Positions 21,675 to 38,687 are shown, counted from the stretch's first letter. The stretch is DNA of 39,326 nucleotides from an uncultured Candidatus Saccharibacteria bacterium (GCA_964525595.1 CAZGHF010000004.1:1-39326), one strand, 5' to 3'. A program made the numbers and translations. The notes: generated by a model from the sequence alone, not told the origin.

Positions 21675-21830
21675 TAAATTGATTCTCTTTTTTGAGTAAT
21701 ACAAAGCCCGATCCGAGCATCGGGTTTTTGTATGATTACATCGTCGCTGAAAAATTCTTAAGCCCAAACGAGGGTGGTTCAGCAGGCGGATGGTTGGTGG
21801 ATGGTTTTTGATTTATGCTTAGAAAACATT

Positions 21831-21879
21831 AACCCACCCCTCCTTCGCCAAGGCTACGGGCGGGTAAATCTTTACGTAA
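21831..21879 (+). repeat. 49-bp inverted repeat, right arm (contains REP-like element)
   Basis: AACCCACCCCTCCTTCGCCAAGGCTACGGGCGGGTAAATCTTTACGTAA. Confidence 0.9.
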
Positions 21880-21886
21880 GCCCTAG

Positions 21887-24656: not shown

Positions 24657-24745
24657 ATGTACGGAAATAATATCTGAATTATATAACCTTCATTTTATCT
24701 CTTCCCTTTTCACCGACAAACTAGGAGAACTGGTAAAACTAAGCA

Positions 24746-25459
24746 ATGGATAAGCTCATTTTCCTAGACACAGAGACGACCGGCAATGACGTATTAAAGG
24801 ATCGCCTGTGTCAAGTTTGTTACAAAACTTCTGATGGAATTTACAGCGGTTATTTTAAGCCGCCAATCCCGGTATCAGTGAAGTCAATGAGTATCACTAA
24901 TATCACTAATAAAATGCTTCAAGATAAAGAGGCGTTTGGGGACAGCGAGATGAAAAAAGATCTCGAAAGCCGATTGGTTAATGGAATATTGGTAGCTCAT
25001 AATGCAAAATTTGATTGCGCAATACTGGAAGCTGAGGGAATATCCGTACCTCAGCGCATTTGCACTTTACGGGTAGCAAGGCATTTGGATCCTAGTAATC
25101 TTATTCCGGAATACGGATTGCAGTATCTCCGTTATTATTTAGATCTTGAAATCGGAGACACTATCGCCCATAGTGCCGAAGGCGATGTGAAAGTGCTTTG
25201 CGCCCTTTTTGATAGATTATTAGCTAAAATGGGAAAGAGAGGGTTATCGGAAGAAAAGATAATTGCCGAGATGATTGATGTTTCCAGCAGGCCGTCATTA
25301 TTTAAATTATTTAATTTTGGTAAATATAGAGATAAAAAAGTTGAGGAGGTGGTAAAAGCCGACAGGAACTATTTGGAGTGGCTGCTTGATAGAAAAATAG
25401 AAGAGGGCAGTCAAGATGAAGATTGGATTTATACTCTTGAACACTATTTAAAAAATTAG
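24746..25459 (+). CDS. DEDDh 3'-5' exonuclease (DnaQ/ExoX-like)
   Basis: FLDTETTG, VAHNAKFD, AHSAEGD, C-terminal FNFGKY..YLEW. Confidence 0.9.
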   Translation: MDKLIFLDTETTGNDVLKDRLCQVCYKTSDGIYSGYFKPPIPVSVKSMSITNITNKMLQDKEAFGDSEMKKDLESRLVNGILVAHNAKFDCAILEAEGISVPQRICTLRVARHLDPSNLIPEYGLQYLRYYLDLEIGDTIAHSAEGDVKVLCALFDRLLAKMGKRGLSEEKIIAEMIDVSSRPSLFKLFNFGKYRDKKVEEVVKADRNYLEWLLDRKIEEGSQDEDWIYTLEHYLKN

Positions 25460-25471
25460 AAAGGTAGATTT

Positions 25472-26803
25472 ATGACCCAAAAACAGGCATTAGATATTTT
25501 AAAAATGGGGCATAACGTGTTTTTAACTGGTCCGCCGGGGAGTGGAAAGACTTATCTTTTAAATCAATACATTAATTATTTAAGAAAGAATAGAGTTGCT
25601 GTTGCTGTTACCGCTTCGACGGGCGTTGCTTCTACCCACTTAGACGGCAGAACTATACATTCTTGGTCAGGGATAGGTATTAAAAAAGGAAGTCTTTCTA
25701 AAAAAGATTTGAGAGAAGTCTTATCAAGACCTCGCGTTATAGGTAGGGTAAATCAATCCATAGTCCTTATAATAGACGAGATATCCATGTTGCATGCCTA
25801 TCAACTTGATATGGTTGATAGAATTTGTCGTGAATGTAAGCAAGATGCTCAACCATTTGGGGGAATTCAGGTTATATGCTCCGGTGATTTCTTTCAATTA
25901 CCTCCCATAGAGAGGAGAAAGGATAGAAAACCAAAATTTGTAACGGATTCCTATGTATGGCCAAATGCCGATATTAAAGTTTGTTATCTTGGAGAGCAAC
26001 ACCGTCATGCCGCCGATGAAAAGTTCACCCGTGTTTTAGATAATATTCGTGGGAGAACCGTAGAAGAAAACATAATCAGAGCATTGCTTAGTAGAAAAAA
26101 TAAGGAAATTAACTCTAAGATCAGACCTACTAAGCTTTATACACATAATGAAGACGTTGATGCTATTAACCAATTAGAACTTGATAGACTTACCGGAGAA
26201 GAGCATCAATATCTTATGAGAAGCGAAGGAGAAAAACATCTTGTCAAAATTCTAAAAAAAGATTGTCTGGCTCCGGAAGTTTTGACTTTAAAAAAGGGGG
26301 CTGAAGTTATGTTTTTGAAAAATAATTTTGAAAAAGGTTATGTGAATGGGACTCGTGGTAGGGTGATTGGATTTGACGATGATGATTATCCGATAGTAGA
26401 AAAATTTGACGGAAAAAAAATTATTGTTACACCGGCAAGCTGGGCTATCGAAGAGAACGACATTGTCTTAGCTCGCATTTTTCAAACTCCACTTCGTCTT
26501 GCGTGGGCTATTACCGTCCACAAAAGTCAAGGAATGACTTTGGATACTGCTGAAATTGATTTAAGCAAGGCCTTTGAGAGAGGGATGGGATATGTTGCTC
26601 TGTCTAGGGTTAGGGGCTTGGATGGTTTAAGGCTTCAAGGTTTTAATGAAACTGCTTTAGAGGTTAGCGATAAAGCGGTAGAATTAGATAATGAATTTCT
26701 ATCTTCTTCTGAAAATAGCGAACGATTTCTGGCAGATATAAGCGCTGCAAAGAAGAAAAAACTACAGCGGGATTTTGTGGAAAGAAATAAAAAAACACGA
26801 TAA
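25472..26803 (+). CDS. PIF1-like SF1B DNA helicase
   Basis: NVFLTGPPGSGKT, TASTG, TIHSWSG, IIDEISM, GDFFQLPP, NGTRG, PLRLAWAITVHKSQG, YVALSR. Confidence 0.92.
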   Translation: MTQKQALDILKMGHNVFLTGPPGSGKTYLLNQYINYLRKNRVAVAVTASTGVASTHLDGRTIHSWSGIGIKKGSLSKKDLREVLSRPRVIGRVNQSIVLIIDEISMLHAYQLDMVDRICRECKQDAQPFGGIQVICSGDFFQLPPIERRKDRKPKFVTDSYVWPNADIKVCYLGEQHRHAADEKFTRVLDNIRGRTVEENIIRALLSRKNKEINSKIRPTKLYTHNEDVDAINQLELDRLTGEEHQYLMRSEGEKHLVKILKKDCLAPEVLTLKKGAEVMFLKNNFEKGYVNGTRGRVIGFDDDDYPIVEKFDGKKIIVTPASWAIEENDIVLARIFQTPLRLAWAITVHKSQGMTLDTAEIDLSKAFERGMGYVALSRVRGLDGLRLQGFNETALEVSDKAVELDNEFLSSSENSERFLADISAAKKKKLQRDFVERNKKTR

Positions 26804-26855
26804 AGATTTTAGAGGTGAACTCAAAAAGTCGGAGAAATGATTGAGGAGTGAAAAT

Positions 26856-27722
26856 ATGAGCGATTACTACATTAAATATATCACTGGACCCGGGGGCCAA
26901 ATGGGTTATCCTGAAAACAACGGCTACCTTGTTGCTTTTGCTCCTAGACAAGAAAAACCCTGTAATCGTTTTAAGGAGTGTGATGGATTTCTTCTCTATG
27001 AAACTGGTCACAAAACAGGAGATAGGGCAGGGGCAAAGGCTATTTATGCCCGCGGAGTTGTTGCTGTGGACCAAAGCTCTTTTATTAATTTGCCGGAATT
27101 TGGCGTGGGAGAAAAATGGCCGTATGTGGTTAAAGTTAACATACAAAAAAGGGTTGATCCTGCGAAAGGAGTTCCTCAAAAAAGAATTGAAGAAATAGTT
27201 GGGAAAAAACTAAGAGATAAACCTGGCGGAATTTGGAAAATAACAAAAGAGGAGTTTGATGCGCTATCATCCGAACTCAATAATGCTCGGAGAGCATCGT
27301 TTTGGTTAAATAAAATTAAGCAAAAAATTAGGGGAGATATGAAGCCAAAAAAGTTTTACATAGGGGATTATAAGGAAGATGTAATAAAAGAAAATCACGG
27401 AGGGTGGTTTATTGGTAAGTTTATGGAGGTCGAACCGAGAAAAAATGACGAAGTAGAAGTTAAGTATTGGGAATTTGGGGTTGGAAATCCAAATCATGAC
27501 ACTAAAACATCTAAAACGATTGAGTGCACCCTCATTTTAGAGGGAGAAATAGAAGGCTATGTTGATGGTGAGAAGGTTAATTTGTATGGCGGTCAGTATA
27601 TTGTTATCAAGCCCGGCACGTCCAATGGTTTTCCCAAGAAAGTCTATAAAAGAGTAAGGGGAATAACAATTAAGGCACCCAGCGATCCTAGTGCTAAGAA
27701 AGTTTTAAAGTCGGAGAAATGA
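26856..27722 (+). CDS. EVE/PUA-like domain fused to a cupin domain (probably two fused genes; second ATG at 27339)
   Basis: N-half FLLYETG..AIYARGVV..WPYVVKV..ITKEEFDAL; C-half GWFIGKFM..EVKYW..ECTLILEG..YIVIKPG; internal GGGGAG-ATG. Confidence 0.55.
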   Translation: MSDYYIKYITGPGGQMGYPENNGYLVAFAPRQEKPCNRFKECDGFLLYETGHKTGDRAGAKAIYARGVVAVDQSSFINLPEFGVGEKWPYVVKVNIQKRVDPAKGVPQKRIEEIVGKKLRDKPGGIWKITKEEFDALSSELNNARRASFWLNKIKQKIRGDMKPKKFYIGDYKEDVIKENHGGWFIGKFMEVEPRKNDEVEVKYWEFGVGNPNHDTKTSKTIECTLILEGEIEGYVDGEKVNLYGGQYIVIKPGTSNGFPKKVYKRVRGITIKAPSDPSAKKVLKSEK

Positions 27723-27737
27723 TTGAGGAATAAAATT

Positions 27738-28514
27738 ATGGATCAAAAACTAACCTTTTCTAACTCCAGAGGCGATAAACTTATTGGTGTTCTTTCAAAT
27801 CCGACAGGGGATAAAACAAAGCCGATTGTTATTTTGGTTCACGGTTTCAACTCGAAGAAAGAAACTCGCAGCCTAGTTCAGCTACAGGAGATATTCGATA
27901 AGCAAGACCTGTCTTCGTTTAGGTTTGATTTGTATGGGCATGGAGAAAGCGAGGGTGAGTTTGAGAACATAACAGTAAGTGAGGCAGTTGACGATATTTT
28001 ACGAGCAATTATCTTCCTCAAAGCTGAGGGATATACTAGAATTGGTCTTGTTGGTTCAAGTTTTGGGGGATTGGCTAGCATAATCGCTACCTCACAGACG
28101 GAAGGCATTTTCGCACTTGCCCTCAAGGCACCTGTGTCTGATTATGAAGAAACACGACGTCTCAAGATAGGAGAAGAAGGTATCGAACAATGGGAAAAAG
28201 AAGGATATGCAATCTACGAGGGTAATGGTTACGAGAAATTAAAGTTGAATTACTCGTTTTTTGAAAATGCAGGGAAGAATAAAGCGTATACAGTTGCGCC
28301 TAGCATCAAAGTTCCTACACTCATTGTGCATGGTGACCAAGACAAAACAGTACCGATTAAGCAAAGCATTAAAACCATGAAACTGCTCCCAAAAGGCGAA
28401 TTGGTGACCATCAAAGGGGCATCACACAGCTTTGAAGGTGAATACTGGCAGCAAATGCTAGAAACTATATCGTCATTTATGATTCGACATGCAAATTCCG
28501 TTTCGGAGAAATGA
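27738..28514 (+). CDS. Alpha/beta hydrolase
   Basis: VILVHGF, RFDLYGHGESEG, GSSFGG nucleophile, HGDQD, GASH. Confidence 0.92.
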   Translation: MDQKLTFSNSRGDKLIGVLSNPTGDKTKPIVILVHGFNSKKETRSLVQLQEIFDKQDLSSFRFDLYGHGESEGEFENITVSEAVDDILRAIIFLKAEGYTRIGLVGSSFGGLASIIATSQTEGIFALALKAPVSDYEETRRLKIGEEGIEQWEKEGYAIYEGNGYEKLKLNYSFFENAGKNKAYTVAPSIKVPTLIVHGDQDKTVPIKQSIKTMKLLPKGELVTIKGASHSFEGEYWQQMLETISSFMIRHANSVSEK

Positions 28515-28543
28515 TTAAGGGGTAATCTGATATACTCAAGCCA

Positions 28544-29926
28544 ATGGGTAATAGCTATCTTGTTTCTACAAACCCCGCAAAAGGATACGAGGAAGTTGGC
28601 CGAGTGCCAGTTTCCACAAACGAAGAGATAACAAATGCGGTCAAGCAGGCGCACGAAGTATTTCCCGCATGGAAAGAATTACCAATCCGGGAGAGAATTA
28701 GGTATTTTAAAAAATTCCTTGAGCTATACGAAAAACAAATAGAGGAAATCGCAAAACTGCAGACGCAGGAAATGGGAAAACCGATTAAAGACTCTATAAG
28801 CGAATGCAGTAACGCTAAAGATTGGCTCGAATGGCAATTAGAGAACGCCCCAAAATTCTTAGAAACCCAAATTCTTGATAAGTTTGACGACTATCAAACA
28901 GAACTCCATTTTGAACCATACGGCGTTACAGCCTCAATTGCTCCATGGAACTATCCTACGTATCAATTCTTCCTTGCTGTTATGCAGCAATTATTAGTCG
29001 GTAATACCGTAGTTTTTAAGCACTCCGAGGAATGCCCGTTAACATCCCAAATTCTTGTGGAGCTAATGAACAAAACTAGTTTTCCAAAAGGTGTTTTTAG
29101 TTGTATTTATGGAAACGGACAAGTAGGGCAACAGCTTCTTGAACAAGACGTTAACCTCATTCACTTTACGGGTAGTTCTCGGATTGGTCAGTTGGTTTAC
29201 GAAGCGGCTGCTAAAAAGTTCATTCCAGCCGTTCTTGAAATGGGAGGATCTTCACCGGCAATCGTCTTTGACGATGCTAATCTCAAAAATACATGTGACT
29301 CCGTGTACGCCGAGCGCTTCGACAACTGCGGGCAAATCTGCTGCGCCCTTAAACGCCTAGTCGTCCACGAGAATATTCACGATAAGGTAGTTGAGCAACT
29401 TAAAGCCATTATTGAGTTACAGGTTGTGAGTGATCCATTAGACAAAAATACAACCATGGGTCCGCTTGTCGCAAAAAGACAACTTAACCTTTTAGAAGAA
29501 CAGGTAGACGATGCTAAAGCGAAAGGCGCTACTATTGTCGCCGGTGGCGAGAGACCAAGTGAGCTAAACGGAGCTTTCTATAAACCAACCCTCATCACCA
29601 ATACCACTCAAGACATGAAAGTTGTTAATGAAGAAGTATTTGGCCCAGTTCTCCCCGTTATTAAGTTTTCAAGCGAGGAAGAAGCTGTAAAAATAGCCAA
29701 TGACACCCCATACGGCTTAAGCGCTTTTGTGTATACTGATGATTCTAAACGTGCAGATAGAGTAGCGAAGAAACTTGAGGCCGGACAAATAAGTATTAAT
29801 GGATGTTCATACTTCTCAAGTCATGCCCCATTTGGCGGCTACAAAAAATCAGGCATCGGCCGTGGTGATGGAAAATATGGTTACTACAACATAACGCAGA
29901 TGAAAGTAATTTCTCGCCCATGTTAG
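28544..29926 (+). CDS. Aldehyde dehydrogenase family protein, copy 1
   Basis: PWNYP, FTGS, LEMGG, GQIC, EEVFGPV, YGLSA, PFGGYKKSGIGR. Confidence 0.95.
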   Translation: MGNSYLVSTNPAKGYEEVGRVPVSTNEEITNAVKQAHEVFPAWKELPIRERIRYFKKFLELYEKQIEEIAKLQTQEMGKPIKDSISECSNAKDWLEWQLENAPKFLETQILDKFDDYQTELHFEPYGVTASIAPWNYPTYQFFLAVMQQLLVGNTVVFKHSEECPLTSQILVELMNKTSFPKGVFSCIYGNGQVGQQLLEQDVNLIHFTGSSRIGQLVYEAAAKKFIPAVLEMGGSSPAIVFDDANLKNTCDSVYAERFDNCGQICCALKRLVVHENIHDKVVEQLKAIIELQVVSDPLDKNTTMGPLVAKRQLNLLEEQVDDAKAKGATIVAGGERPSELNGAFYKPTLITNTTQDMKVVNEEVFGPVLPVIKFSSEEEAVKIANDTPYGLSAFVYTDDSKRADRVAKKLEAGQISINGCSYFSSHAPFGGYKKSGIGRGDGKYGYYNITQMKVISRPC

Positions 29927-30020
29927 CGAGATGAAATAGGATTAAAGCAGTTCCAATGTCGTCCCAGGGCTCAGCACCTCACTCCACCAAAAAATTAGGG
30001 GAGTGATAGAATGAATTTAT

Positions 30021-30650
30021 ATGAAAAAAGAAATTACCCCAAAAGATAGTCGTTATATTCCGTTCACACAACAGCATTCCTGCTGTGTGCCGACGTGCAT
30101 TCTCATGATCATGTACAAGCATGGTATTCCACTTATACCCCAAGAACTTCTCGGTCATCACTTGGGATTAATCGTTGAAGAGGAGAATAAAAATCTTTTT
30201 TGGCACGTTCGCACTGGCGTTCGGCCAGAAAGGGGCTGGGGTACTCAGATGTACAGAGAAGAATACGAACCGAACACCGTTTTTTCAAAACTTGGTATAC
30301 CGTTACATGTTATATCTCGTTCAGTAAGCTCCTTTGATAATAACGGCTTTAGAAAATTTTTAATTGATGTGGTCGAGCAAGATAGAGATGTACTTGTTAA
30401 CTTTGATCACACGCACTTAAATAAGAAAAAAGGGAGCCGCCAAGGCCACGTCTGTATACTTGATCGGGTATATCCAGACAAAAACCAAGTTCGGCTTATT
30501 GACCCATCATCTAAACAGCCGAAGTGGAGAATAGTGAACATCGATGAACTCAAAGAGGCAATGGAAGCACACGAGGGTTTCTTTTTTGAGTTTGAGTTAA
30601 AGAGAAGAATTACTAAAATTAACAAACGCTACGAGAAGGAAGAAAAATAA
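30021..30650 (+). CDS. Papain-fold (C39/phytochelatin-synthase-like) peptidase
   Basis: FTQQHSCCVPTCILM, GHVCIL, LIDP: Gln-Cys-His-Asp arrangement. Confidence 0.55.
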   Translation: MKKEITPKDSRYIPFTQQHSCCVPTCILMIMYKHGIPLIPQELLGHHLGLIVEEENKNLFWHVRTGVRPERGWGTQMYREEYEPNTVFSKLGIPLHVISRSVSSFDNNGFRKFLIDVVEQDRDVLVNFDHTHLNKKKGSRQGHVCILDRVYPDKNQVRLIDPSSKQPKWRIVNIDELKEAMEAHEGFFFEFELKRRITKINKRYEKEEK

Positions 30651-30653
30651 TTG

Positions 30654-30690
30654 CCCACCCCTCCTTCGCTAAGGCTACGGGCGGGCAAGC
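30654..30690 (+). repeat. REP-like GC-rich hairpin element
   Basis: CCCACCCCTCCTTCGCTAAGGCTACGGGCGGG, nearly identical to the core of the 13448/21831 inverted repeats. Confidence 0.85.
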
Positions 30691-30719
30691 AAAAAATTAA
30701 GGGGATGTATAATGAATTT

Positions 30720-31055
30720 ATGGACCTAAAAGAATTACTACAATTTATCACTATCGAAGATGAAAGGTTGAAAAAATATTACGGAAATTATCCCGACCAA
30801 GAAAAAAGGATACTTGCCAGGACTGTGAAATTGTCGGAAGAATTGGGTGAGCTTTGCGATGAGATTTTATCTTTTAACGCTATGCAAAGAAAAGATAAAA
30901 TGGAAAATTATGACGGCGAGAATTTATCCGAAGAATTCGCCGATGTTTTAATAACCACCTTATTGCTTGCCAAAGCTATAGATGTTGACATTGAAGAAGC
31001 ATTAAAGAAAAAAATTACTAAAATTAACAAACGCTACGAGAAGGAAGAAAAATAG
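30720..31055 (+). CDS. MazG-like NTP pyrophosphohydrolase
   Basis: KLSEELGELCDEI..LSEEFADVLI, two ExxE/ExxD helices. Confidence 0.85.
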   Translation: MDLKELLQFITIEDERLKKYYGNYPDQEKRILARTVKLSEELGELCDEILSFNAMQRKDKMENYDGENLSEEFADVLITTLLLAKAIDVDIEEALKKKITKINKRYEKEEK

Positions 31056-31096
31056 TCACCCGCCAAAAAATTAGGGGAGTAGGTCAGAATAGATTT

Positions 31097-31657
31097 ATGA
31101 CAAAAGAGGACATTCAAGTAGTTAATGAAGACGACCAGGTTATTGGTCATAAATCCAGGTCTGAGGTTGATTCTGCGGGGGATACTTACCGCGTATCTGC
31201 CCTTTGGGTTACTAATAAGAAAGGTGATGTTTTAATTGCTCAGAGAAAGTTAACGAAGAAGCATTGTCCCGGCAAATGGGGTCCGGCCGTTGCCGGAACC
31301 GTTGACGAAGGCGAGACATATGAAAGCAACATATATAAGGAAGCGGAAGAAGAGATCGGACTGAGAGATGTTAAGTTTGAACTTGGCCGGAAACGGAGAA
31401 GATATAAACCTCATTCCCACTTTACTCAGTGGTTTTTAGTGACTCTTGACCGTGATATTAATGATTTTAAACTTTGTGAGGACGAGGTGGAAAAACTAGC
31501 CTGGATTCCAAAAAAAGAACTGCAGGAGGACATTGATAAGAACCCCGAAAAGTATTTACCGTCAATGCCCGAAATCGTTAAAACTTTTTCTAAACCCGCC
31601 CCTCCTTCTCCGGCAGTCGCCGGATACGGGCGGGCAGGCAAAAAATTAGGGGAGTAG
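31097..31657 (+). CDS. NUDIX hydrolase (IDI-like)
   Basis: VVNEDDQVIG, LIAQR..PGKWGPAVAGTVDEGETY..KEAEEEIG. Confidence 0.9.
   Translation: MTKEDIQVVNEDDQVIGHKSRSEVDSAGDTYRVSALWVTNKKGDVLIAQRKLTKKHCPGKWGPAVAGTVDEGETYESNIYKEAEEEIGLRDVKFELGRKRRRYKPHSHFTQWFLVTLDRDINDFKLCEDEVEKLAWIPKKELQEDIDKNPEKYLPSMPEIVKTFSKPAPPSPAVAGYGRAGKKLGE
31595..31639 (+). repeat. REP-like hairpin variant inside the NUDIX 3' end
   Basis: CCCGCCCCTCCTTCTCCGGCAGTCGCCGGATACGGGCGGGCAGGC. Confidence 0.75.
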
Positions 31658-31661
31658 GCTT

Positions 31662-32288
31662 ATGTCAGATAATTTTATAAGATTGAATACTGTTTTTAAG
31701 TTGCCTGACGATGTGGCAAGAGAAGCAATAGCTTTAAGTCGTGAAATTGGCGGAAAGAATGAAGCGTTTTTTGTTTTGGATGATATTCAATTCCTTCCTC
31801 ACATAACGATTTACTCACCCGAATATCCTAAAAAGAATTTGGATAAAGTTTTGAAGAAAGTTGGAGAAATTGCCAACAATACGGAAAAAGTTAATTTGAT
31901 ATCAAAAGAAATAAGTAGCGGCGAGAGATTTATCATTGTAGAGTTTGATTATACACAGGCGATTAAGAAAATTCACGAGGAAGTTGTGCTGACGATTAAC
32001 TCTTTAAGAGAAGGACGTTTATGGGAGAAATATACTTCTGGTGATTATAAAATAAAATTTAATCCAGAACAGCAAAAGAATATTGAGAAGTACGGATACC
32101 CCAACTCGATGAGTTTATATCTTCCCCATTTAACGATCATTAGATTAAAGGATGAATTGTCGGCTGGAGCCATATCAAAAAATATTAAGTGGAGTATTCC
32201 CAGATTTACAGTTGATAAAATTGCCATTTATGAAATGGGGAAGCACGGTACTTGTAAGTCGTTAGTTAAAGAATTTAAGCTGAAATAA
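31662..32288 (+). CDS. 2H phosphoesterase (2'-5' RNA ligase-like)
   Basis: Two HxT motifs: PHITIY and PHLTII. Confidence 0.75.
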   Translation: MSDNFIRLNTVFKLPDDVAREAIALSREIGGKNEAFFVLDDIQFLPHITIYSPEYPKKNLDKVLKKVGEIANNTEKVNLISKEISSGERFIIVEFDYTQAIKKIHEEVVLTINSLREGRLWEKYTSGDYKIKFNPEQQKNIEKYGYPNSMSLYLPHLTIIRLKDELSAGAISKNIKWSIPRFTVDKIAIYEMGKHGTCKSLVKEFKLK

Positions 32289-32369
32289 CCCACCGAAAAA
32301 TTAGGAAAGACATGACTAGGGGGTAGGTGATAATTGATAGGTGATAGGGAAAATGGTATTATCATACAT

Positions 32370-32585
32370 ATGAAGAAGATCATCTTTAAAAATACAGTGT
32401 GGAAAGAGAGCAAGTACTATGTAGCCCAGTCATTGAACGTTGATGTTTCAAGCTTTGGTAAAACCAAAAAAGAAGCTCTTAAAAACTTGAGTGAGGCGCT
32501 GGAGCTTTATCTTGAAGACGCGAAAAAATCGGACATTACCAAAGTTGAGCGGCCGGAGCTGGTTGCGCTCTCCGTAGATGCCTAA
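32370..32585 (+). CDS. hicB: HicB-family antitoxin
   Basis: YVAQSLNVDVSSFGKTKKEALKNLSEALELYLED. Confidence 0.85.
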   Translation: MKKIIFKNTVWKESKYYVAQSLNVDVSSFGKTKKEALKNLSEALELYLEDAKKSDITKVERPELVALSVDA

Positions 32586-32793
32586 ACTGTATTCCTCGGC
32601 ACACATTGTTAAGGTCCTTCAGGAAGAGGGCTTTTTCTATGTTTCGCAAAAAGGAAGCCATGCAAAATTTAGGAAACGGGTTGGCACCAAAGTGTATACG
32701 GTTATTATTCCGGTGGGCCGCAAAGAGGTACCCCGTGGTACATTTAGCTCAATATTGAGACAGTCGGGGTTAAAGGAAGGAGATTTTAAATAA
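32578..32793 (+). CDS. hicA: HicA-family mRNA interferase toxin
   Basis: VKVLQEEGF..SQKGSHAKF..IIP..EVPRGTFSSILRQSG; overlaps hicB. Confidence 0.88.
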   Translation: MPKLYSSAHIVKVLQEEGFFYVSQKGSHAKFRKRVGTKVYTVIIPVGRKEVPRGTFSSILRQSGLKEGDFK

Positions 32794-32819
32794 TAAATCT
32801 ATCCGCCGAAAAATTAGGT

Positions 32820-33536
32820 ATGAATAAATCAATTTTAATTATTGTTATTGCGGTTTTGGTTGGGTTGGGAGGCGGATTTTTGTTGAATAAGAGCAGGGCG
32901 CCGGAGAAGGCGGCCGATGATGATTTGCATACTGTTTTGGAAGTGATTGACGGGGACACTCTGGCGATAGAGGATAGCAAAAAGGTGCGGCTTTTGAGTA
33001 TTGATGCGCCGGAGAGGGGAAGCTGTTACTACCAAGAATCGCGGGAGGCGCTAAGGGCGCTAATCGGCGAGAATCCTGTGAGGTTGGAGAAGGACATATC
33101 GAACGTTGATAAATACGGCCGGCTCTTGCGGTACGCGATAATACCGGTTGAGGGCGGGGACAACATCTTAGTGAACGAATATCTTGTCCGGGAGGGTTTT
33201 GCGGTGGAGAGCGGCAAGTCGCCGGATAATCGTTACGAAAGATTTTTTATGTCGGCTGAGGAAGAGGCAAGAGAGAATAAACGGGGTTTGTGGGGCGCTT
33301 GCGAGATTGAGGAAGGAGATGAAGCCGAGCTTCGGGAAATAGACGCTGAGCCGCCGAGTCCGGATTGCATCATAAAAGGGAATATATCGGAGAAGGGTTA
33401 TGGAATGACGTATTTGGTGCCGGGGTGCGACAATTACAACCGGGTGAAAATTGATTTGCGGAAAGGGGAGAAATATTTTTGTTCAGAGGAGGAAGCGGTT
33501 AAGGCGGGATTCAGGAAAGCGACAAATTGTCCGTAA
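32820..33536 (+). CDS. Thermonuclease (SNase-like), membrane-anchored/secreted
   Basis: VIDGDT, VRLLSIDAPE, DKYGRLLRY, NEYLVREGFA, AEEEARENKRGLW; C-terminal IKGNIS..FCSEEEAVKAGFR. Confidence 0.92.
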   Translation: MNKSILIIVIAVLVGLGGGFLLNKSRAPEKAADDDLHTVLEVIDGDTLAIEDSKKVRLLSIDAPERGSCYYQESREALRALIGENPVRLEKDISNVDKYGRLLRYAIIPVEGGDNILVNEYLVREGFAVESGKSPDNRYERFFMSAEEEARENKRGLWGACEIEEGDEAELREIDAEPPSPDCIIKGNISEKGYGMTYLVPGCDNYNRVKIDLRKGEKYFCSEEEAVKAGFRKATNCP

Positions 33537-33585
33537 TGACGACTTATGACTTATGACGTATAACAAATTGGAGTAGAATTAAGGG

Positions 33586-34968
33586 ATGAATAATAACCAT
33601 CTCGTCTCTACAAATCCCGCAAAAGGATACGAGGAAGTTGGCCGAGTGCCAGTTTCCACAAACGAAGAGATAACAAATGCGGTCAAGCAGGCGCACGAAG
33701 TATTTCCCGCATGGAAAGAATTACCAATCCGGGAGAGAATTAGGTATTTTAAAAAATTCCTTGAGCTATACGAAAAACAAATAGAGGAAATCGCAAAACT
33801 GCAGACGCAGGAAATGGGAAAACCGATTAAAGACTCTATAAGCGAATGCAGTAACGCTAAAGATTGGCTCGAATGGCAATTAGAGAACGCCCCAAAATTC
33901 TTAGAAACCCAAATTCTTGATAAGTTTGACGACTATCAAACAGAACTCCATTTTGAACCATACGGCGTTACAGCCTCAATTGCTCCATGGAACTATCCTA
34001 CGTATCAATTCTTCCTTGCTGTTATGCAGCAATTATTAGTCGGTAATACCGTAGTTTTTAAGCACTCCGAGGAATGCCCGTTAACATCCCAAATTCTTGT
34101 GGAGCTAATGAACAAAACTAGTTTTCCAAAAGGTGTTTTTAGTTGTATTTATGGAAACGGACAAGTAGGGCAACAGCTTCTTGAACAAGACGTTAACCTC
34201 ATTCACTTTACGGGTAGTTCTCGGATTGGTCAGTTGGTTTACGAAGCGGCTGCTAAAAAGTTCATTCCAGCCGTTCTTGAAATGGGAGGATCTTCACCGG
34301 CAATCGTCTTTGACGATGCTAATCTCAAAAATACATGTGACTCCGTGTACGCCGAGCGCTTCGACAACTGCGGGCAAATCTGCTGCGCCCTTAAACGCCT
34401 AGTCGTCCACGAGAATATTCACGATAAGGTAGTTGAGCAACTTAAAGCCATTATTGAGTTACAGGTTGTGAGTGATCCATTAGACAAAAATACAACCATG
34501 GGTCCGCTTGTCGCAAAAAGACAACTTAACCTTTTAGAAGAACAGGTAGACGATGCTAAAGCGAAAGGCGCTACTATTGTCGCCGGTGGCGAGAGACCAA
34601 GTGAGCTAAACGGAGCTTTCTATAAACCAACCCTCATCACCAATACCACTCAAGACATGAAAGTTGTTAATGAAGAAGTATTTGGCCCAGTTCTCCCCGT
34701 TATTAAGTTTTCAAGCGAGGAAGAAGCTGTAAAAATAGCCAATGACACCCCATACGGCTTAAGCGCTTTTGTGTATACTGATGATTCTAAACGTGCAGAT
34801 AGAGTAGCGAAGAAACTTGAGGCCGGACAAATAAGTATTAATGGATGTTCATACTTCTCAAGTCATGCCCCATTTGGCGGCTACAAAAAGTCAGGCATCG
34901 GCCGTGGTGATGGAAAATATGGTTACTACAACGTAACGCAGATGAAAGTAATTTCTCGCCCACGTTAG
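33586..34968 (+). CDS. Aldehyde dehydrogenase family protein, copy 2
   Basis: Near-identical to 28544-29926. Confidence 0.95.
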   Translation: MNNNHLVSTNPAKGYEEVGRVPVSTNEEITNAVKQAHEVFPAWKELPIRERIRYFKKFLELYEKQIEEIAKLQTQEMGKPIKDSISECSNAKDWLEWQLENAPKFLETQILDKFDDYQTELHFEPYGVTASIAPWNYPTYQFFLAVMQQLLVGNTVVFKHSEECPLTSQILVELMNKTSFPKGVFSCIYGNGQVGQQLLEQDVNLIHFTGSSRIGQLVYEAAAKKFIPAVLEMGGSSPAIVFDDANLKNTCDSVYAERFDNCGQICCALKRLVVHENIHDKVVEQLKAIIELQVVSDPLDKNTTMGPLVAKRQLNLLEEQVDDAKAKGATIVAGGERPSELNGAFYKPTLITNTTQDMKVVNEEVFGPVLPVIKFSSEEEAVKIANDTPYGLSAFVYTDDSKRADRVAKKLEAGQISINGCSYFSSHAPFGGYKKSGIGRGDGKYGYYNVTQMKVISRPR

Positions 34969-34972
34969 CGAT

Positions 34973-35572
34973 ATGAAAAAACAGGTAATACTAATTCACG
35001 GGGGAACGGCCTTTGACACATACAAGGATTATTTATCGTTTTTGAAAAGGCAAAAAATTGATTTGGAGAGATTCAGGCAGGAAAAATGGGCCAGTTCCTT
35101 GAGGGTGAAACTTGGCAGGAGTTTCGATGTTCTGTTACCAAAAATGCCGAATCCGGCAAATGCCAAATATGAAGAATGGAGGATTTTATTCAGAAAAATT
35201 GCACCGGCTCTGAAAAACAACGTTGTTTTAGTCGGCCACTCCCTCGGAGCAATATTTTTGGCAAAATACTTGTCGGAAAATAAGTTTCCGAAAAAGATTC
35301 GGGCGACGTTTCTCATTGCGCCGCCGTATGACGACAAAAATATGGAAGAATCGTTGGGAGATTTCAAGTTGCCCAAAGGCTTGAAAAGGTTGGAAAAGCA
35401 GGGTGGTAAGATTTTTCTATATCACAGCGAGGACGATAAAGTCGTTCCATTTTCCCACTTGGGAAAATACAAAAAAGTCCTACCTAATGCCACTGTTAGG
35501 AAATTCAAGAAAAAGGGCCATTTTAGCCAAGCGAGCTTTCCGGAGTTAGTAAAAGATATTAAGTTGCTTTAA
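34973..35572 (+). CDS. RBBP9/YdeN-family alpha/beta hydrolase
   Basis: VILIHGG, MPNP, LVGHSLG, HSEDDKVVPF, GHF. Confidence 0.88.
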   Translation: MKKQVILIHGGTAFDTYKDYLSFLKRQKIDLERFRQEKWASSLRVKLGRSFDVLLPKMPNPANAKYEEWRILFRKIAPALKNNVVLVGHSLGAIFLAKYLSENKFPKKIRATFLIAPPYDDKNMEESLGDFKLPKGLKRLEKQGGKIFLYHSEDDKVVPFSHLGKYKKVLPNATVRKFKKKGHFSQASFPELVKDIKLL

Positions 35573-35589
35573 CCGCTAGCCAATAGCTT

Positions 35590-36108
35590 ATGACTTTAAA
35601 CGAAGAATTATTATTAATCTTAGAATTTTCCGAAAATAAGGAAATTGAAAAAGAGTACCGGGAGCGGATAACAAAAGGAAACCTTACAAAAGACGAAGAC
35701 CCGGTTTCTCATTTTTGCGTATATTTTCTCCCTTTTAGTTCTGAAACTAAAAAAGTTTTTTTCGGGCATCATAAAAAATCCGGGTTATGGCTTTCTCCTG
35801 GAGGCCACATTGATAAGGGAGAGTCTTTTCTTGAGGCCTTGAACAGGGAAATTAACGAGGAATTAGGCATTAAAGATTTCTTCAAGGAAAAGCCTGCGCC
35901 CTTTCTTTTGACTGTCACAAACATTGATAGAGACCCACGGCAGTGCAAGAAGCACTTTGATGTGTGGCATTTAATGGAGACGGACGGGAGTAATTTCGAT
36001 ATTGATATGACCGAATACCATGAAACAAAGTGGTTGACGATTGCGGAAGCGAAAGAAATCACTGACGCTGCGAATAAAGCGGCGTTAAGAGTTGTTGAGA
36101 AAATGTGA
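35590..36108 (+). CDS. NUDIX hydrolase
   Basis: HHKKSGLWLSPGGHIDKGESFLEALNREINEELG. Confidence 0.9.
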   Translation: MTLNEELLLILEFSENKEIEKEYRERITKGNLTKDEDPVSHFCVYFLPFSSETKKVFFGHHKKSGLWLSPGGHIDKGESFLEALNREINEELGIKDFFKEKPAPFLLTVTNIDRDPRQCKKHFDVWHLMETDGSNFDIDMTEYHETKWLTIAEAKEITDAANKAALRVVEKM

Positions 36109-36191
36109 TGGATGACAATCGAGGGTTTTGACTTTTAGCACCAACAGGTGTTATTTTGGTCTTAGTTCACCTTAGACGGAGAGAGATAGAA

Positions 36192-36413
36192 ATGAACATC
36201 CCGAGACGTGGAAACTATCCGAACAACTCCGTTCAGTGTAATGACTGCGGAGGTTTGGGATGCCTCGCATGCGGCTTCAGGGGATGGCTTACTCCCCAGG
36301 ACCATCTCGGGGGCAGGCGATGCGAGAGAGTTGGCTGCGACAACCCCATCCTGCCGGCTCAGGTGGTTATCTACTGCACCGACGAGTGCGCCCGGCTGGA
36401 CGCCCAACCGTAG
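36192..36413 (+). CDS. Small cysteine-rich putative Zn-binding protein
   Basis: CNDCGGLGCLACGFRG, CERVGC, CTDEC; SD GGAGAG, TTGACT promoter upstream, terminator downstream. Confidence 0.55.
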   Translation: MNIPRRGNYPNNSVQCNDCGGLGCLACGFRGWLTPQDHLGGRRCERVGCDNPILPAQVVIYCTDECARLDAQP

Positions 36414-36433
36414 GCGGTGAAGTATTCGCGCTT

Positions 36434-36473
36434 GGGGGCGGTTTCCTTACAGGAGACCGCCCCCGTTTTTTTT
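36434..36473 (+). terminator. Rho-independent terminator
   Basis: GGGGGCGGTTTCCT-TAC-AGGAGACCGCCCCC-G-T8. Confidence 0.8.
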
Positions 36474-36639
36474 ATGATAGGTGATAGGTTGTAGGTTGTA
36501 GGTGATAGCTGATGATGTATGACAAGTAAGGTAGCCCCGCCGGTGGCGGCCCTTCGACTCGAAGAGTCTCAGGATCGAAGAGATGCTCAATTTTCTGACT
36601 TCGCTTTGCTTAGAGAAAATTGGCAGGTAGAATTAAGGG

Positions 36640-36840
36640 ATGAAAAAACAAACAAAAATAACTTTTATTCTTCTCGGTTTAACCGTGTTGTCCACTATTT
36701 TGCACAATGTGTTTTATGCTATTTTTGAAGTTGAGGAGCCGGTGTTCTTTATCCTTACCCTTCTGTTTGCCCTGGGTTTTGTAGTGTCAGTTTTTTGGAG
36801 TTTGATTCTTATGCTTAGGAAAAAGAAGCCGAAAGATTAG
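36640..36840 (+). CDS. Small 2-TM membrane protein
   Basis: 66 aa, two TM, ILHNVFYA..EEPVFF. Confidence 0.65.
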   Translation: MKKQTKITFILLGLTVLSTILHNVFYAIFEVEEPVFFILTLLFALGFVVSVFWSLILMLRKKKPKD

Positions 36841-36854
36841 GGAAAAATAGATTT

Positions 36855-37535
36855 ATGACCATTAAAGACAAAGTCGTAGTGATAACCGGGGCGAGTCGGG
36901 GACTGGGCAAGGCGTTGGCCGCTCTTTTTGCAAATGAAGGCGCAAAGCTGGTTTTGAGTTCGCGGCCGGGCAAGGAACTGGAGAAAGCGGGCCGGGAGCT
37001 GGGGGTTGAAACTTTTCCGGCGGATGTAACCAAGGAAGATGAAATAGTTAAGCTGGCGGACTTTGCCCTGGAGAAATTCGGCCGAATTGATATTTGGATT
37101 AACAACGCCGGGATTTGGATGCCTCACGCGCTAATAGAAGAAATGGACTGGAAGAAGGTGCATGAGCTTGTGGAAGTAAATTTGTTCGGGACGGTATATG
37201 GTTCAAAAGCGGCCTTGATTCAGATGAAGAAACAGCAAACCGGAGTAATAATAAACATTATTTCGGTAAGCGCCCTTGAGGGCCGTCCCGGTTCATCGGG
37301 CTATTGCGCGAGCAAGTACGCCGCCGTCGGTTTTACCAAATCGCTCCGCCTTGAAGTAAAGCAAGACAACATTAAGGTATTAGCAATTTATCCCGACAAG
37401 ATGAAAACAAATTTGTTTGATGAGAAAAAACCGGAAAACTACGGTGGATTTATGAGCCCTGAATTTGTGGCGGAAAATTTGCTTAAAAATCTTAAAAAGG
37501 ACAGTCCGGAGGAGGAATTGATTATCAGGGGGTGA
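36855..37535 (+). CDS. Short-chain dehydrogenase/reductase
   Basis: TGASRGLG, NNAG, YCASK. Confidence 0.93.
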   Translation: MTIKDKVVVITGASRGLGKALAALFANEGAKLVLSSRPGKELEKAGRELGVETFPADVTKEDEIVKLADFALEKFGRIDIWINNAGIWMPHALIEEMDWKKVHELVEVNLFGTVYGSKAALIQMKKQQTGVIINIISVSALEGRPGSSGYCASKYAAVGFTKSLRLEVKQDNIKVLAIYPDKMKTNLFDEKKPENYGGFMSPEFVAENLLKNLKKDSPEEELIIRG

Positions 37536-37979: not shown

Positions 37980-38687
37980 ATGCTAAACGCAGGGATGTTG
38001 TCCAGGTTCTTTCGCATCACGGCCTACGTCATGTTAGTGATCGGACTGGTCGGATTCGTGGCCGATGTCACGACCTGGTTCGGGCACGAGTGGAGCGATA
38101 GGTTTCCATTTACCACGTTCGGGCACGAGTGGAGCGATAGGTTTCCATTTACCACCCATCTGGGGGTGGGGTTGCCACTGGGTGTTCTCGTCTTCTTCTT
38201 TAACCAGAAGCTCGGGCATGCGGCCTACTGGTTCCTGGTCTACGTTTGGGCCAAGACCTTCGGTATTCCGTTCCACTTCAGGTGGCGGGACCAGGAACAT
38301 GTCAACGAAGGTCTCATCAACCAGGCCATGCTCATTCAAGAACTGCATGACGAGCAGCACTCTGTCCGGCAGGCGTTCTCGAAGCTTGAGCGCAACGGTA
38401 AGGGAAATTCCTACCAAGCCAAGGAACTCGGGAGACGGCTGAAAGAGCTCAACCGGAAGGTCGACAGGTCCTTCAACAGGTTCTACTTCTTGAGGGACGT
38501 CGCCTGGGCTGCCGGCTACACGGTCGGCCTCAGCATTTTCGCCTACCTTGAGGAAGACGGGATGGCCATCCTCAGGGCGAGTACGGCCGAGAGGAATCGA
38601 CCTGACCGGGTCCTGGTGTTCGACGACGACATCGCGGGTGGGAAGACCTGGATCAAGACCACCATGAAGGTGGCTCGCAGACGGTAA
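37980..38687 (+). CDS. Hypothetical membrane protein with coiled coil
   Basis: AAGGAG RBS, N-terminal TM segments, GC-rich codon third positions, own terminator. Confidence 0.7.
   Translation: MLNAGMLSRFFRITAYVMLVIGLVGFVADVTTWFGHEWSDRFPFTTFGHEWSDRFPFTTHLGVGLPLGVLVFFFNQKLGHAAYWFLVYVWAKTFGIPFHFRWRDQEHVNEGLINQAMLIQELHDEQHSVRQAFSKLERNGKGNSYQAKELGRRLKELNRKVDRSFNRFYFLRDVAWAAGYTVGLSIFAYLEEDGMAILRASTAERNRPDRVLVFDDDIAGGKTWIKTTMKVARRR
38078..38155 (+). repeat. Perfect 39-bp tandem duplication
   Basis: GTTCGGGCACGAGTGGAGCGATAGGTTTCCATTTACCAC x2 (FGHEWSDRFPFTT x2). Confidence 0.95.

Follow-up and report, generated by a model that had tools for sequence, protein, structure and literature searches.

In the window, i.e., the whole stretch of 39,326 nucleotides analysed here, an array of unrelated, co-oriented accessory genes is punctuated by two short repeats, J1 and J2, and we lean towards the reading that these are portable stop, ribosome-binding-site and promoter linkers which double as crossover points for short-homology recombination. 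The cassette-like character of the array, as originally predicted, is supported, and its setting is bacterial, with secA, rplS and gyrB as flanking genes. According to Pfam, it contains PIF1, a cupin, alpha/beta hydrolases, two ALDH, MazG, two NUDIX proteins, a 2H/LigT phosphoesterase, a HicB-like protein with HicA, SNase and SDR; from the cupin onwards this agrees with the gene content given before, whereas the supposed peptidase (ORF 30021-30650) has no Pfam match. A junction does exist at 25450, where the array had been thought to start (a degenerate J1), but the variable array begins at around 21743, the point at which a contig 90% identical to the window (L038) possesses an intact CCACC-A6-TTAGGGGAG followed by a different gene.

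J1 consists, in this order, of a stop codon, CCRCC, A6, TTAGGRGAG and often a TAGAAT-like hexamer situated 6-8 nt before an ATG; its orientation is always that of the downstream gene, and it contains AGGAG or GGGAG. The nine copies of the original prediction (at 25450, 27322, 29984, 30691, 31059, 31640, 32289, 32803 and 36828) are all present, such that the recurring motif stands, but not its length of around 17-20 bp: the core (CCRCC-A6-TTAGGRGAG-TA) measures 22-24 nt and the full unit, with hexamer and ATG, up to around 45 nt. Upstream stop codons supplied by the motif, likewise noted before, are found for the ExoX-like gene in TTAG (25457-25459), for the TM66 ORF (36838-36840) and for NUDIXa in GAGTAG (31655-31657); altogether, the stop of the upstream gene lies inside J1 in 8 of 44 copies. 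Between TTAGG in the core and the start codon lie 1 to 411 nt, most commonly 11, and at most 34 nt in 27 of 43 copies. J2, a second junction repeat unrelated to J1 and overlooked before, combines a TGA stop with a GAGGA Shine-Dalgarno and exists in three copies (at 26829, 27711 and 28503; span 26829-28525), and hence two different linker types are in use within the array. The ATGAC-type spacer of the ALDH2 linker is also found after J1 in two metagenome contigs (L038, L056) and in genome G003.

Table 1. Linkers, stem-loops and recombination scars of the array (positions counted from the first letter of the window).
Feature	Position	Strand	Remarks
Decayed J1, 5' edge of variable array	21743..21762	+	comparison with L038
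GC-rich stem-loop copy (CCCACCCC...GGGCGGG)	21833..21864	+	just before MazE-like gene
Degenerate J1 before PIF1	25450..25474	+	TTAG holds stop of ExoX-like gene
J2 copy 1	26829..26851	+	after PIF1; strain contig L056 diverges from window inside this copy
J1 read through in frame	27317..27338	+	fuses unknown 161-aa domain to cupin (ORF 26841-27722)
J2 copy 2	27711..27733	+	gives cupin stop (..KSEK, then stop) and Shine-Dalgarno of alpha/beta hydrolase
J2 copy 3	28503..28525	+	gives hydrolase stop (..SEK, then stop); strain contig L058 diverges here
ALDH copy 1 with 6-nt remnant ATGAAA of the gene following copy 2	28544..29939	+	repeat comparison
J1 long form (core, TAGAAT, 8 nt, ATG)	29984..30023	+	before unknown ORF 30021-30650; 32.6 bits with weight matrix
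Copy of MazG 3' end (..ITKINKRYEKEEK, then stop) fused to unrelated ORF 30021-30650	30597..30659	+	recombination scar
GC stem-loop (30651-30688) and J1 long form	30651..30722	+	before MazG; TATAAT 6 nt before an ATG
J1 long form between MazG and NUDIXa	31060..31099	+	best weight-matrix match, 36.1 bits; insertion site of L061 cassette
GC stem-loop variant and J1	31595..31661	+	both read as NUDIXa C-terminus (stop in GAGTAG); Shine-Dalgarno for 2H gene
J1 with TGATAGG-type spacer	32290..32362	+	before hicB-like/hicA
J1 short form	32803..32822	+	directly before SNase ATG
ATGAC-repeat spacer, TAGAAT 6 nt before ALDH2 ATG	33537..33588	+	different linker type
Degenerate J1 before SDR	36828..36857	+	TTAG is stop of small membrane ORF

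The clustering of J1 in arrays exceeds chance. In the 677-kb genome (G000), the exact 10-mer AAAAATTAGG occurs 13 times on both strands, six times at 27323-32809 of the window contig and two more times, with the same flanks, at the join of contigs C1 and C17. A weight matrix trained on 41 copies, all taken from other genomes, gives seven matches of at least 17.8 bits in this genome, all of them in two accessory-gene arrays (that of the window and a second one at the C1/C17 join) and none before any core gene; at a threshold of 14 bits, 14 matches are found vs. 6 in the reversed genome. By both scans the motif is not the generic core-gene signal that had been considered as its alternative nature. 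Taken alone and with one mismatch allowed, the 10-mer does not reach significance in the window (15 copies vs. 9.1 +/- 2.9 expected; 4 of 100 shuffles reached 15).

The carriers of J1, among them the very small bacterium of the window, are Candidatus Jorgensenbacteria, in several genera of which arrays exist; of 96 genomes of the family, 8 possess the strict 16-mer, the reversed pattern yielding 3 matches in total. Dense series are exhibited by contig 2 of genome G012, with about a dozen copies (11 by one criterion) in around 10 kb, and by a metagenome locus (L041) with 13 copies in 5.6 kb. Upstream of gyrB, different J1-preceded genes are situated in three genomes of one genus (G000, G002 and G003), and the interval from rplS to gyrB extends over 29 kb in G000 vs. 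around 7 kb in G002. Several families (SDR, PIF1, HAD, Ser hydrolase, NUDIX, TM188 and a pair of 62 and 217 aa) recur in different neighbourhoods, mostly with J1 at a border; the SDR ortholog in G012, for instance, has a better-kept J1 and different neighbours. Within a genome the copies are uniform (GGGGAG in G000, GGAGAG in G012), as expected if they exchange among themselves.

Gain, loss or reordering of genes at the junction elements, as had been predicted for relatives, is seen in near-identical metagenome contigs; these were found by searching for J1, and the sample is therefore biased towards J1-containing junctions, and they are short and in principle misjoinable at repeats. Contigs 94-98% identical to the window exhibit both a whole cassette between two J1 copies and reordering at J1 and J2. 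In L061, whose flanks are 94.7% and 98.5% identical to the window, a cassette of 642 nt is bounded exactly by a J1 copy on either side; GGAGAG is found in the inserted cassette and GGGGAG in the resident J1 copy, which places both crossovers inside A6-TTAG. In L056 and L058 (flanks 98% identical), PIF1 is followed by J2, an RNaseH-like gene, J1, the hydrolase, J2, two TM genes, J1 and unk161, compared with PIF1, J2, unk161-cupin, J2 and hydrolase in the window. Of seven strain breakpoints, five are situated within a J1 or J2 copy or at its border; the remaining two are at start codons, and since the two strains carry different linker types there, homology between J copies cannot have produced them. 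Neither a clean J1-to-J1 deletion joint nor a joint of a circle formed by neighbouring units was listed among the assembled contigs of the sequencing runs.

Two scars of imprecise joining, a MazG tail carried by ORF 30021-30650 and the ATGAAA after ALDH copy 1, argue against precise site-specific cutting. The former is one copy of a 63-nt direct repeat (90% identical to 31002-31064) and lies, in MazG itself, within the Pfam MazG domain. Apart from 3 sites, ALDH copy 1 is identical to 33617-34967, the first 30 nt or so and the flanks being different.

Judged by its sequence, J1 itself carries putative expression signals: it has stops in two frames and a Shine-Dalgarno, to which a -10-like hexamer is often added. 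J1 and J2 would each close the upstream frame with stops in two frames and offer a Shine-Dalgarno to any following gene, to which the long form of J1 would add a -10-type promoter positioned for a leaderless transcript. Use of the hexamer at J1 is supported by a genome-wide peak in the spacing of TA[GT]AAT-N-ATG opening an ORF of at least 60 aa, at N = 6-9 (23, 17, 11 and 11 cases, with 1-6 at other spacings), several array genes being among the cases at the peak. In the long form, the Shine-Dalgarno of the core would fall upstream of the predicted transcription start, and its conservation there is not accounted for by this reading. The 42 promoters given by a sigma-70 scan are no excess over expectation (33 +/- 7), and none was called at J1, where no recognisable -35 box was found either; the best sigma-70-like match (10 of 12, TG-extended) lies at 32334-32362, in the J1 spacer before hicB-like/hicA. 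Fold z-scores of the junction stem-loops, between -0.3 and -1.3, are not significant (-13.9 kcal/mol and z -1.3 for that at 21833-21864).

As the same 23-45 nt recur as a direct repeat along the array, the linker would also serve as a crossover point. Short-homology recombination, either RecA-dependent exchange or replication slippage, could there remove, copy, add and rearrange gene modules, both within strains and between strains that co-occur; incoming DNA would arrive most likely by natural transformation (RecA, ComEC and DprA are all present), and occasional illegitimate joins would set new genes beside a linker and leave scars. The data show the anatomy of the linkers, their confinement to variable arrays, their occurrence in several Jorgensenbacteria genera and strain differences with breakpoints in them, whereas the use of the signals, the enzyme acting and the direction of each event are what we infer in this scheme. 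Counting against it, 23 nt is at the lower limit for RecA-type exchange known from work on E. coli. Two mechanisms had been proposed originally, among which short-homology recombination, possibly of transformed DNA, fits better, and a dedicated recombinase is unsupported.

Such a recombinase is demanded by an explanation to which we give only a small chance, namely that J1 is a genuine target of site-specific recombination, functionally a minimal counterpart of attC/attI, with excision and insertion at a fixed point in A6-TTAGG by an unlinked enzyme (the single Xer-like tyrosine recombinase or an unrecognised one). In an alignment of 35 copies from four genera the core hardly varies, with conservation extending beyond the Shine-Dalgarno; that A6-TTAGG is more conserved across genera than a plain Shine-Dalgarno requires counts against the linker reading and hints at a specific binding partner. 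The location of both L061 crossovers and the existence of noncoding, 'empty' units fit this explanation as well, and diverse palindromes (stems of 8-18 pairs, 3-19 nt upstream of J1 in 12 of 49 copies) recall sites conserved by structure instead of sequence. However, a hairpin of at least 8 pairs within 70 nt upstream is absent in the other 37 of the 49 copies, J1 has no dyad symmetry, the unrelated J2 behaves alike at breakpoints, and scars and start-codon breakpoints misfit precise cutting. Nor is any recombinase linked to or co-distributed with the arrays in five genomes, the Xer-like genes being far from them: PF00589 is represented by one Xer-like gene of around 297 aa in four of the five and by two contig-end fragments in G001, the gene in G000 (C1:36712-37224) being far from both arrays; a Y1 (HUH) transposase was not found in G000, and the one large serine recombinase exists only there.

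A somewhat larger, though still modest, chance is given to J1 serving only in expression or regulation, moving along with its gene and having no causal part in shuffling, either a start-associated sequence or an island-controlling site of a repressor or RNA-binding protein; rearrangements would then coincide with J1 only because it fills short intergenic gaps. Its constant orientation, the AGGAG or GGGAG inside it and its position mostly 1-34 nt from the start agree with this, as do the orthologous SDR and PIF1 genes, which retain their own J1 across genera, and the anatomy, which matches the SAS of Cluster K mycobacteriophages as far as outlined in PMC3203893. On the other hand, the insertion in L061 has J1 exactly at both of its ends, within near-identical flanks, five of seven breakpoints fall in or at linkers, which are a small share of the DNA, the copies are uniform within a genome, and the spacing between J1 and the start codon (1 to more than 400 nt) is far looser than in SAS. 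That the pattern is an artefact, i.e., a chimeric bin, assembly errors at short repeats or an A-rich ribosome-binding site that recurs by chance, is hardly credible: the genome is a bin of 29 contigs, run contigs break at the ALDH and MazG-tail repeats, gene order across the 1.35-kb ALDH repeat is not verifiable, and the 1-mismatch 10-mer alone lacks significance, but other genera exhibit the same motif and architecture in assemblies made independently (among them that of a published genome, with a 237-kb contig), weight-matrix matches are exclusive to arrays, and run contigs span the whole region with even depth and at least 99% identity.

Integron arrays are delimited by attC sites, imperfect hairpins of around 57-141 nt which close each cassette on its 3' side and whose cores, RYYYAAC and GTTRRRY, are complementary. 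J1 arrays resemble them, and CALIN, in their co-oriented, small, unrelated accessory genes including a toxin-antitoxin pair, in an element repeated at each border, in some noncoding units and in a content varying between close relatives, but they have neither IntI nor attC, most borders lack a hairpin, the joints are imprecise, and the border element bears predicted expression signals for the downstream gene. The absence of attC sites had been noted before and is borne out by a crude regex-plus-fold scan of 21701-37000: its one candidate falls within the coding sequence of DUF2130, the junctions have none, and block-shuffled sequence yielded 1.2 candidates on average; an integron integrase was not found in the window. 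With no attC-like site, hairpins at only 12 of 49 J1 copies and no linked recombinase, an integron was rejected.

Modules bounded by short conserved sites or flanks and exchanged without a transposase are also known as pdif modules of Acinetobacter plasmids (28-bp XerC/D sites in alternating orientation) and as minimal mobile elements of Neisseria, exchanged by transformation and homologous recombination with whole flanking genes as homology; J1 lacks XerC/D-type symmetry, and the homology in its arrays is a linker of 23-45 nt. The stoperators of Cluster A mycobacteriophages, asymmetric repressor-binding sites of the 13-bp class, equally occupy short intergenic gaps in many copies and in one orientation relative to transcription, but a link to gene gain and loss is not known as a stoperator feature, and a repressor is known for them and none for J1.

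SAS/ESAS of Cluster K mycobacteriophages are situated 3-7 bp from the start, half of the copies having inverted repeats just upstream (Pope et al. 2011, PMC3203893). Going by that account, they share with J1 an asymmetric repeat with AGGAG in a single orientation, conservation beyond the needs of 16S pairing, around 10-20 copies per genome before unrelated non-core genes, an upstream stop that sometimes lies inside, and inverted repeats upstream of part of the copies, whereas J1, with gaps of 1 to 411 nt, does not keep their fixed position. Furthermore, they reside in phages and J1 in cells, and indel boundaries are not among the features ascribed to them in the SAS sections of PMC3203893.

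Most similar in its working is the PeSL (promoter-early stem-loop), a mobile regulatory cassette of T4-type phages for which promoter and terminator activity and mini-circles have been demonstrated (Arbiol et al. 2010, PMC2839356; Comeau et al. 2014, PMC4122927). As portrayed in the relevant parts of these papers, PeSLs are short intergenic composites leading from an upstream stop to the Shine-Dalgarno and start of the next gene, with an AT-rich stretch, promoter elements and, optionally, a G/C-rich stem-loop in between, and they are concentrated in hyperplastic regions beside small accessory ORFs; indels or replacements between close relatives end in them, an exchange attributed to homologous recombination. 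J1 likewise possesses stop, A-tract, Shine-Dalgarno and start, with a -10-like TA[GT]AAT in several copies, is concentrated in a variable region, and forms the end of differences between relatives (L061, L056, L058 and L038, a J1-biased sample). Unlike PeSLs, it has no recognisable -35 box, its core (CCRCC-A6-TTAGGRGAG) has no sigma-70 consensus, only around a quarter of its copies have a stem-loop, and its promoter and terminator roles are putative. The J1 pattern has 0 matches in IMG/VR, and the linkers would work in a PeSL-like manner, but in the chromosome of a bacterium, Jorgensenbacteria, instead of the genome of a T4-type phage.

The window is the complete contig C4 of an assembly of 677 kb in 29 contigs (G000); scanning named genome records for the exact pattern assigned the genomes that bear the motif to Candidatus Jorgensenbacteria, a lineage of the CPR. 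Around 25 genes, all on the plus strand, are situated between ~21.7 kb and 36.9 kb; they were identified with Pfam and PADLOC and are given in the table, together with the short repeated linker J1, the second linker type J2, and the associated stem-loops. All nine motif copies of the original prediction, which had proposed an integron-like cassette array punctuated by a short non-attC junction motif, were found again at their positions, and the gene named there as a peptidase turned out to be an ORF without a Pfam match. The region 26841-27722 is a single stop-free frame of 293 codons that passes from the 161-aa domain (unk161) through J1 into the cupin, such that J1 is translated as ..KQKIRGD... 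At 22215-24656, DUF2130 is followed by the ABC ATPase (best E 2e-26), adjoining the exonuclease and the PIF1/RecD-like helicase; this group may constitute a defence-type module within the variable island. Just 5' of gyrB, an unknown ORF (37980-38687) contains a 39-nt unit in tandem duplicate (38073-38150, 95% identical).

Genes, linkers and stem-loops of the array (positions in the window unless another G000 contig, C1 or C17, is named)
Feature	Location	Strand	Identified with
MazE/AbrB-like, DUF2130, OLD/AriA/GajA-like ABC ATPase, DEDDh exonuclease, PIF1-type helicase		+	Pfam/PADLOC
Unknown 161-aa domain and cupin, in-frame fusion		+	Pfam/PADLOC
Alpha/beta hydrolase, ALDH, 209-aa ORF (originally 'peptidase')		+	Pfam/PADLOC
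MazG, NUDIX, 2H phosphoesterase, HicB-like with HicA, SNase		+	Pfam/PADLOC
Second ALDH, Ser hydrolase, second NUDIX, two small ORFs, SDR		+	Pfam/PADLOC
J1, long forms in G000 (TAGAAT/TATAAT/CAGAAT, 6-8 nt 5' of ATG)	29984, 30686, 31060, C17
J1, short forms in G000	27317, 31635, 32803
GC-rich stem-loop CCCRCCCC...GGGCGGG 5' of the A-tract	30651, 31595, C1 141032
GC-rich stem-loop without J1	21833; inverted copy ~13440-13494
J2, unrelated to J1, with TGA stop and GAGGA Shine-Dalgarno	26829, 27711, 28503

An alignment of 35 J1 copies from six genomes (G000, G002, G003, G012, G008, and G009) exhibits a conserved core of ~22-24 nt, consisting of CCRCC, A or G, AAAAATTAGG, RGAG, and TA; the flanks from -6 to -1 and from +10 to +15, which lie outside the pattern by which the copies were selected, are clearly informative. 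In other lineages, the basic unit comprises ~30 nt, i.e., a stop codon, 2-10 nt, and CCRCC-A6-TTAGGAGAG-TAAATTT-ATG. J1 is uniform within a genome, with GGGGAG in G000 and GGAGAG in G012. According to statistics drawn from 50 copies, the next start follows the end of TTAGG within 34 nt in 27 of 43 copies (mode 11, maximum 411 nt); in 8 of 44, the motif itself contains the stop of the upstream ORF (the TAG of TTAG, or GAGTAG), and in 17 of 44 that stop lies 6-19 nt 5' of the core.

Other lineages possess different long palindromes 3-19 nt 5' of J1, and a hairpin of at least 8 pairs is found within 70 nt of 12 of 49 J1 copies, compared to 33 of 300 random windows. The stem-loops at 13440-13494 (minus strand) and 21833-21864 (plus strand) are inverted copies of one GC-rich element of ~55 nt, including the TAAATCTTTACGTAA tail, and bracket 8.3 kb that encode a YDG/Big-domain surface protein of 2143 aa and, 3' of it, two further ORFs. 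Low-complexity spacers rich in stops, built either of TGATAGG/TTGTAGG or of TTATGAC/TAATGAC repeats, recur 3' of J1 or 5' of promoter-like hexamers in several genomes (window 32317-32347, 33537-33585, and 36475-36517; loci L013, L016, L038, and L056). On contig 2 of G012 (locus L014, minus strand, 12060-12420 and 15340-15720), two copies of a GC-rich segment of ~400 nt (~90% identical, 372 nt aligned), whose gene strand lacks a long ORF, are found, one 5' of PIF1, the other 5' of a His-phosphatase gene; each interrupts a J1 unit, the TTAGGAGA..TAGAT half of which is duplicated at the 3' end of the segment. This segment had no match in Rfam and was absent from G000-G003 in our search.

J1 recurs more often than expected by chance. 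In the G000 genome, 13 exact occurrences of the 10-mer AAAAATTAGG were counted; six of them fall inside a 5.5-kb stretch on the window contig, and two others, with the same flanks, at the termini of C1 and C17. Since C1 overlaps the reverse complement of C17 by 55 nt, these contigs can be merged, which reveals a second, small array (104-aa ORF / J1 / 194-aa ORF / GC stem-loop and J1 / MBL-fold gene / YwbE-like / MOFRL). A weight matrix trained on 41 copies, exclusively from genomes other than G000, gave 14 matches of at least 14 bits in G000 versus 6 in the reversed genome, and all seven matches of at least 17.8 bits are situated inside the two arrays. The possibility raised originally that the motif is equally frequent upstream of core genes is thereby dismissed, and J1 is thus not a generic ribosome-binding site or promoter. 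A strict 16-mer is present in 8 of 96 family genomes, compared to 3 reversed-pattern matches overall. J1 clusters are found in G000, in G002 and G003 of the same genus, and in G012 of another genus, where some twelve copies (11 under the ORF-clustering criterion) occupy ~10 kb 5' of the YwbE-like gene and four more lie on a different contig. A metagenome scan yielded 33 loci, nine of which resemble Jorgensenbacteria arrays; the remaining ones seem to be fortuitous hits from unrelated organisms. Locus L041 contains 13 J1 copies within 5.6 kb, some with nothing but a palindrome between them. A pattern scan of IMG/VR gave no match to J1. In the literature on integrons and cassettes in Patescibacteria, on islands and repeats of Jorgensenbacteria, on leaderless transcripts and Shine-Dalgarno sequences in CPR, and on hypervariable cassettes in Parcubacteria, neither the motif nor similar arrays were found described; PMC6851277 concerns a hypervariable repeat within one gene and is unrelated.

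Gene content changes at J1, as had been anticipated, and three lines of evidence bear on this: differences upstream of gyrB, the neighbourhoods of gene families, and four metagenome contigs of close relatives. The genes preceded by J1 5' of gyrB differ among three genomes of a single genus, and the interval from rplS to gyrB measures 29 kb in G000 versus ~7 kb in G002. When all ORFs of 16 array loci were clustered, SDR, PIF1, HAD, His phosphatase, Ser hydrolase, NUDIX, HicB-like, TM188, and a pair of 62 and 217 aa recurred in different neighbourhoods, mostly bordered by J1; the SDR ortholog of G001-G003 has no J1 and belongs to a conserved SDR / ATP-grasp / YwbE / MOFRL block.

The strongest line is provided by the four short contigs close to the window (L061, L056, L058, and L038). 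L061 corresponds to the window in the 3' end of MazG (170 nt, 94.7%) and in the 5' part of the first NUDIX gene (273 nt, 98.5%), and carries in its middle 642 nt missing from G000, i.e., J1, a 198-aa membrane protein, and a GC stem-loop, after which comes the resident J1. L061 and G000 differ here by an indel with a J1 copy on each side; because GGAGAG is found in the incoming copy and GGGGAG in the resident one, both crossovers lie within A6-TTAG, and a misjoin hardly explains the contig, since both flanks are in G000 order. L056 passes from PIF1 (323 nt, 98.5%) through J2, an RNase H-like gene with zinc ribbon, and J1 with spacer and TATAAT to the start of the hydrolase, and L058 from the 3' end of the hydrolase (287 nt, 98.3%) through J2, two membrane ORFs, the second of which reads through J1, and 72 nt to the start of unk161 (143 nt, 97.9%); their combined gene order differs from that of G000. 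Where G000 has a decayed copy (21743-21762), J1 is intact in L038 (90.3% over 2084 nt), and the hydrolase follows immediately. Among these contigs, all short assemblies that were retrieved by the J1 pattern and are thus biased towards J1 junctions, five of seven strain-level breakpoints fall inside J1 or J2 or at their margins, and the other two at start codons, with linker types differing between the two strains. Contigs of four runs of one sample, which cannot reveal rare variants, contained no reliable J1-to-J1 joint (two listed joints had sides of merely 21-22 nt).

The joints of the array are imprecise. An unrelated ORF (30021-30650) terminates in the last 17 codons of MazG (63-nt repeat, 90% identical), the six initial bases of the gene downstream of the second ALDH also follow the first ALDH, where they give way to unrelated DNA, and upstream genes often extend into the linker and end at its stop codons; J1 and J2, two different linkers, behave alike. 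The ALDH copies themselves (28544-29939 and 33586-34981) share ~1350 nt identical except for 3 sites, with different flanks and first ~30 nt. The assembly graph is equally compatible with a chromosome carrying one ALDH copy plus a circle of 5042 bp (ALDH through SNase), and the depth of the segment between the copies is about that of its flanks.

We lean, with some reserve, towards J1 and J2 being portable linkers that double as preferred short-homology crossover points. They would terminate the upstream reading frame and then start the downstream gene, and as direct repeats of 23-45 nt they would be preferred sites of short-homology exchange, both within the array and between co-occurring strains; RecA, ComEC, and DprA are present. 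It appears quite improbable that J1 is instead the recognition site of an unrecognised Jorgensenbacteria cassette-recombination system, with exchange inside the invariant A6-TTAGG core by an unlinked enzyme, for which the lone Xer-like recombinase or proteins recurring in the arrays (PIF1-type helicase, exonuclease) would be candidates. The dedicated recombinase considered in the original prediction was not found linked to the arrays in five genomes, each of which has one Xer-like tyrosine recombinase distant from them. A large serine recombinase occurs in G000 only, no Y1 transposase was found in G000, and no recombinase was found to be co-distributed with J1; PIF1 was found in G012, though not in G002 or G003, which both carry J1. 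The array is not an integron, and a crude scan agreed with the original prediction in finding no attC at the junctions.

Rather unlikely, too, is a purely regulatory motif without a causal part in shuffling, against which the strain-level breakpoints at J1 and J2 speak. Putative expression signals, on which the linker reading draws as well, are seen in the sequence: in the short and basic forms of J1, the core contains AGGAG or GGGAG, spaced suitably for an ATG start. Across G000, TA[GT]AAT-N-ATG (ORFs of at least 60 aa) peaks at N=6 (23 cases), N=7 (17), and N=8 and 9 (11 each), with 1-6 at other spacings; in the window, the hexamer stands 6-9 nt 5' of ATG at, e.g., 30708, 33574, and 36628, and MazG, the second ALDH, the small membrane ORF, and the MBL-fold gene exhibit this geometry. 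Such a spacing is that expected of leaderless transcripts and, judged from sequence, suggests that many G000 genes are transcribed as leaderless or near-leaderless mRNAs. A scan for sigma-70 consensus and terminators revealed no enrichment and called nothing at J1, which is not an intrinsic terminator, as no T-run follows 3' of it. RNA folds of six junctions gave GC stem-loops of -14 to -27 kcal/mol, a stability that shuffled sequences matched (z -0.3 to -1.3); pairing of CCRCC with GGGG that hides the Shine-Dalgarno sequence was seen in one copy only and is impossible in copies of the GGCAGGC type. Rfam yielded only tRNAs at the gathering threshold for the window and five related loci; in the G012 array, no match of E<=1 was credible. 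An uptake sequence was ruled out by the number of copies (only ~10 per genome), and a tRNA 3' end (CCACCA) because no tRNA-like context was found. Both the site-specific and the purely regulatory explanation are kept alive by the near-invariance of A6-TTAGG across genera, which a plain Shine-Dalgarno role leaves unexplained.

CPR bacteria have tiny genomes, and to our knowledge little is known about their gain and loss of accessory functions. J1 and J2 provide a defined short linker that marks sites of strain-level gene turnover (98% identical flanks, different gene order), with a mixed cargo of nucleotide-cleaning hydrolases (MazG, NUDIX, 2H), nucleases, a toxin-antitoxin pair, and a defence-like ATPase/exonuclease/helicase. 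Should the linkers both express and shuffle genes, they would constitute a cellular counterpart of the PeSL (promoter-early stem-loop) cassettes of phages and a simple alternative to integrons; J1 would then be a sequence tag with which metagenomes can be searched for the flexible gene pool of such organisms, and a natural 'plug-in' expression unit, testable given a CPR culture system. If exchange does prove site-specific, the system would instead amount to a minimal equivalent of integrons in which hairpins are optional and captured genes also receive stop and start signals.

The PeSL cassettes of T4-type phages are likewise described as linkers and crossover points in PMC2839356 and PMC4122927, and the start-associated sequences (SAS) of Cluster K mycobacteriophages (PMC3203893) are similar to J1 in anatomy. 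Compared with these systems, J1 is located in a bacterial chromosome, lacks a -35 box, and has another core and looser spacing; it belongs to neither the PeSL nor the SAS family.
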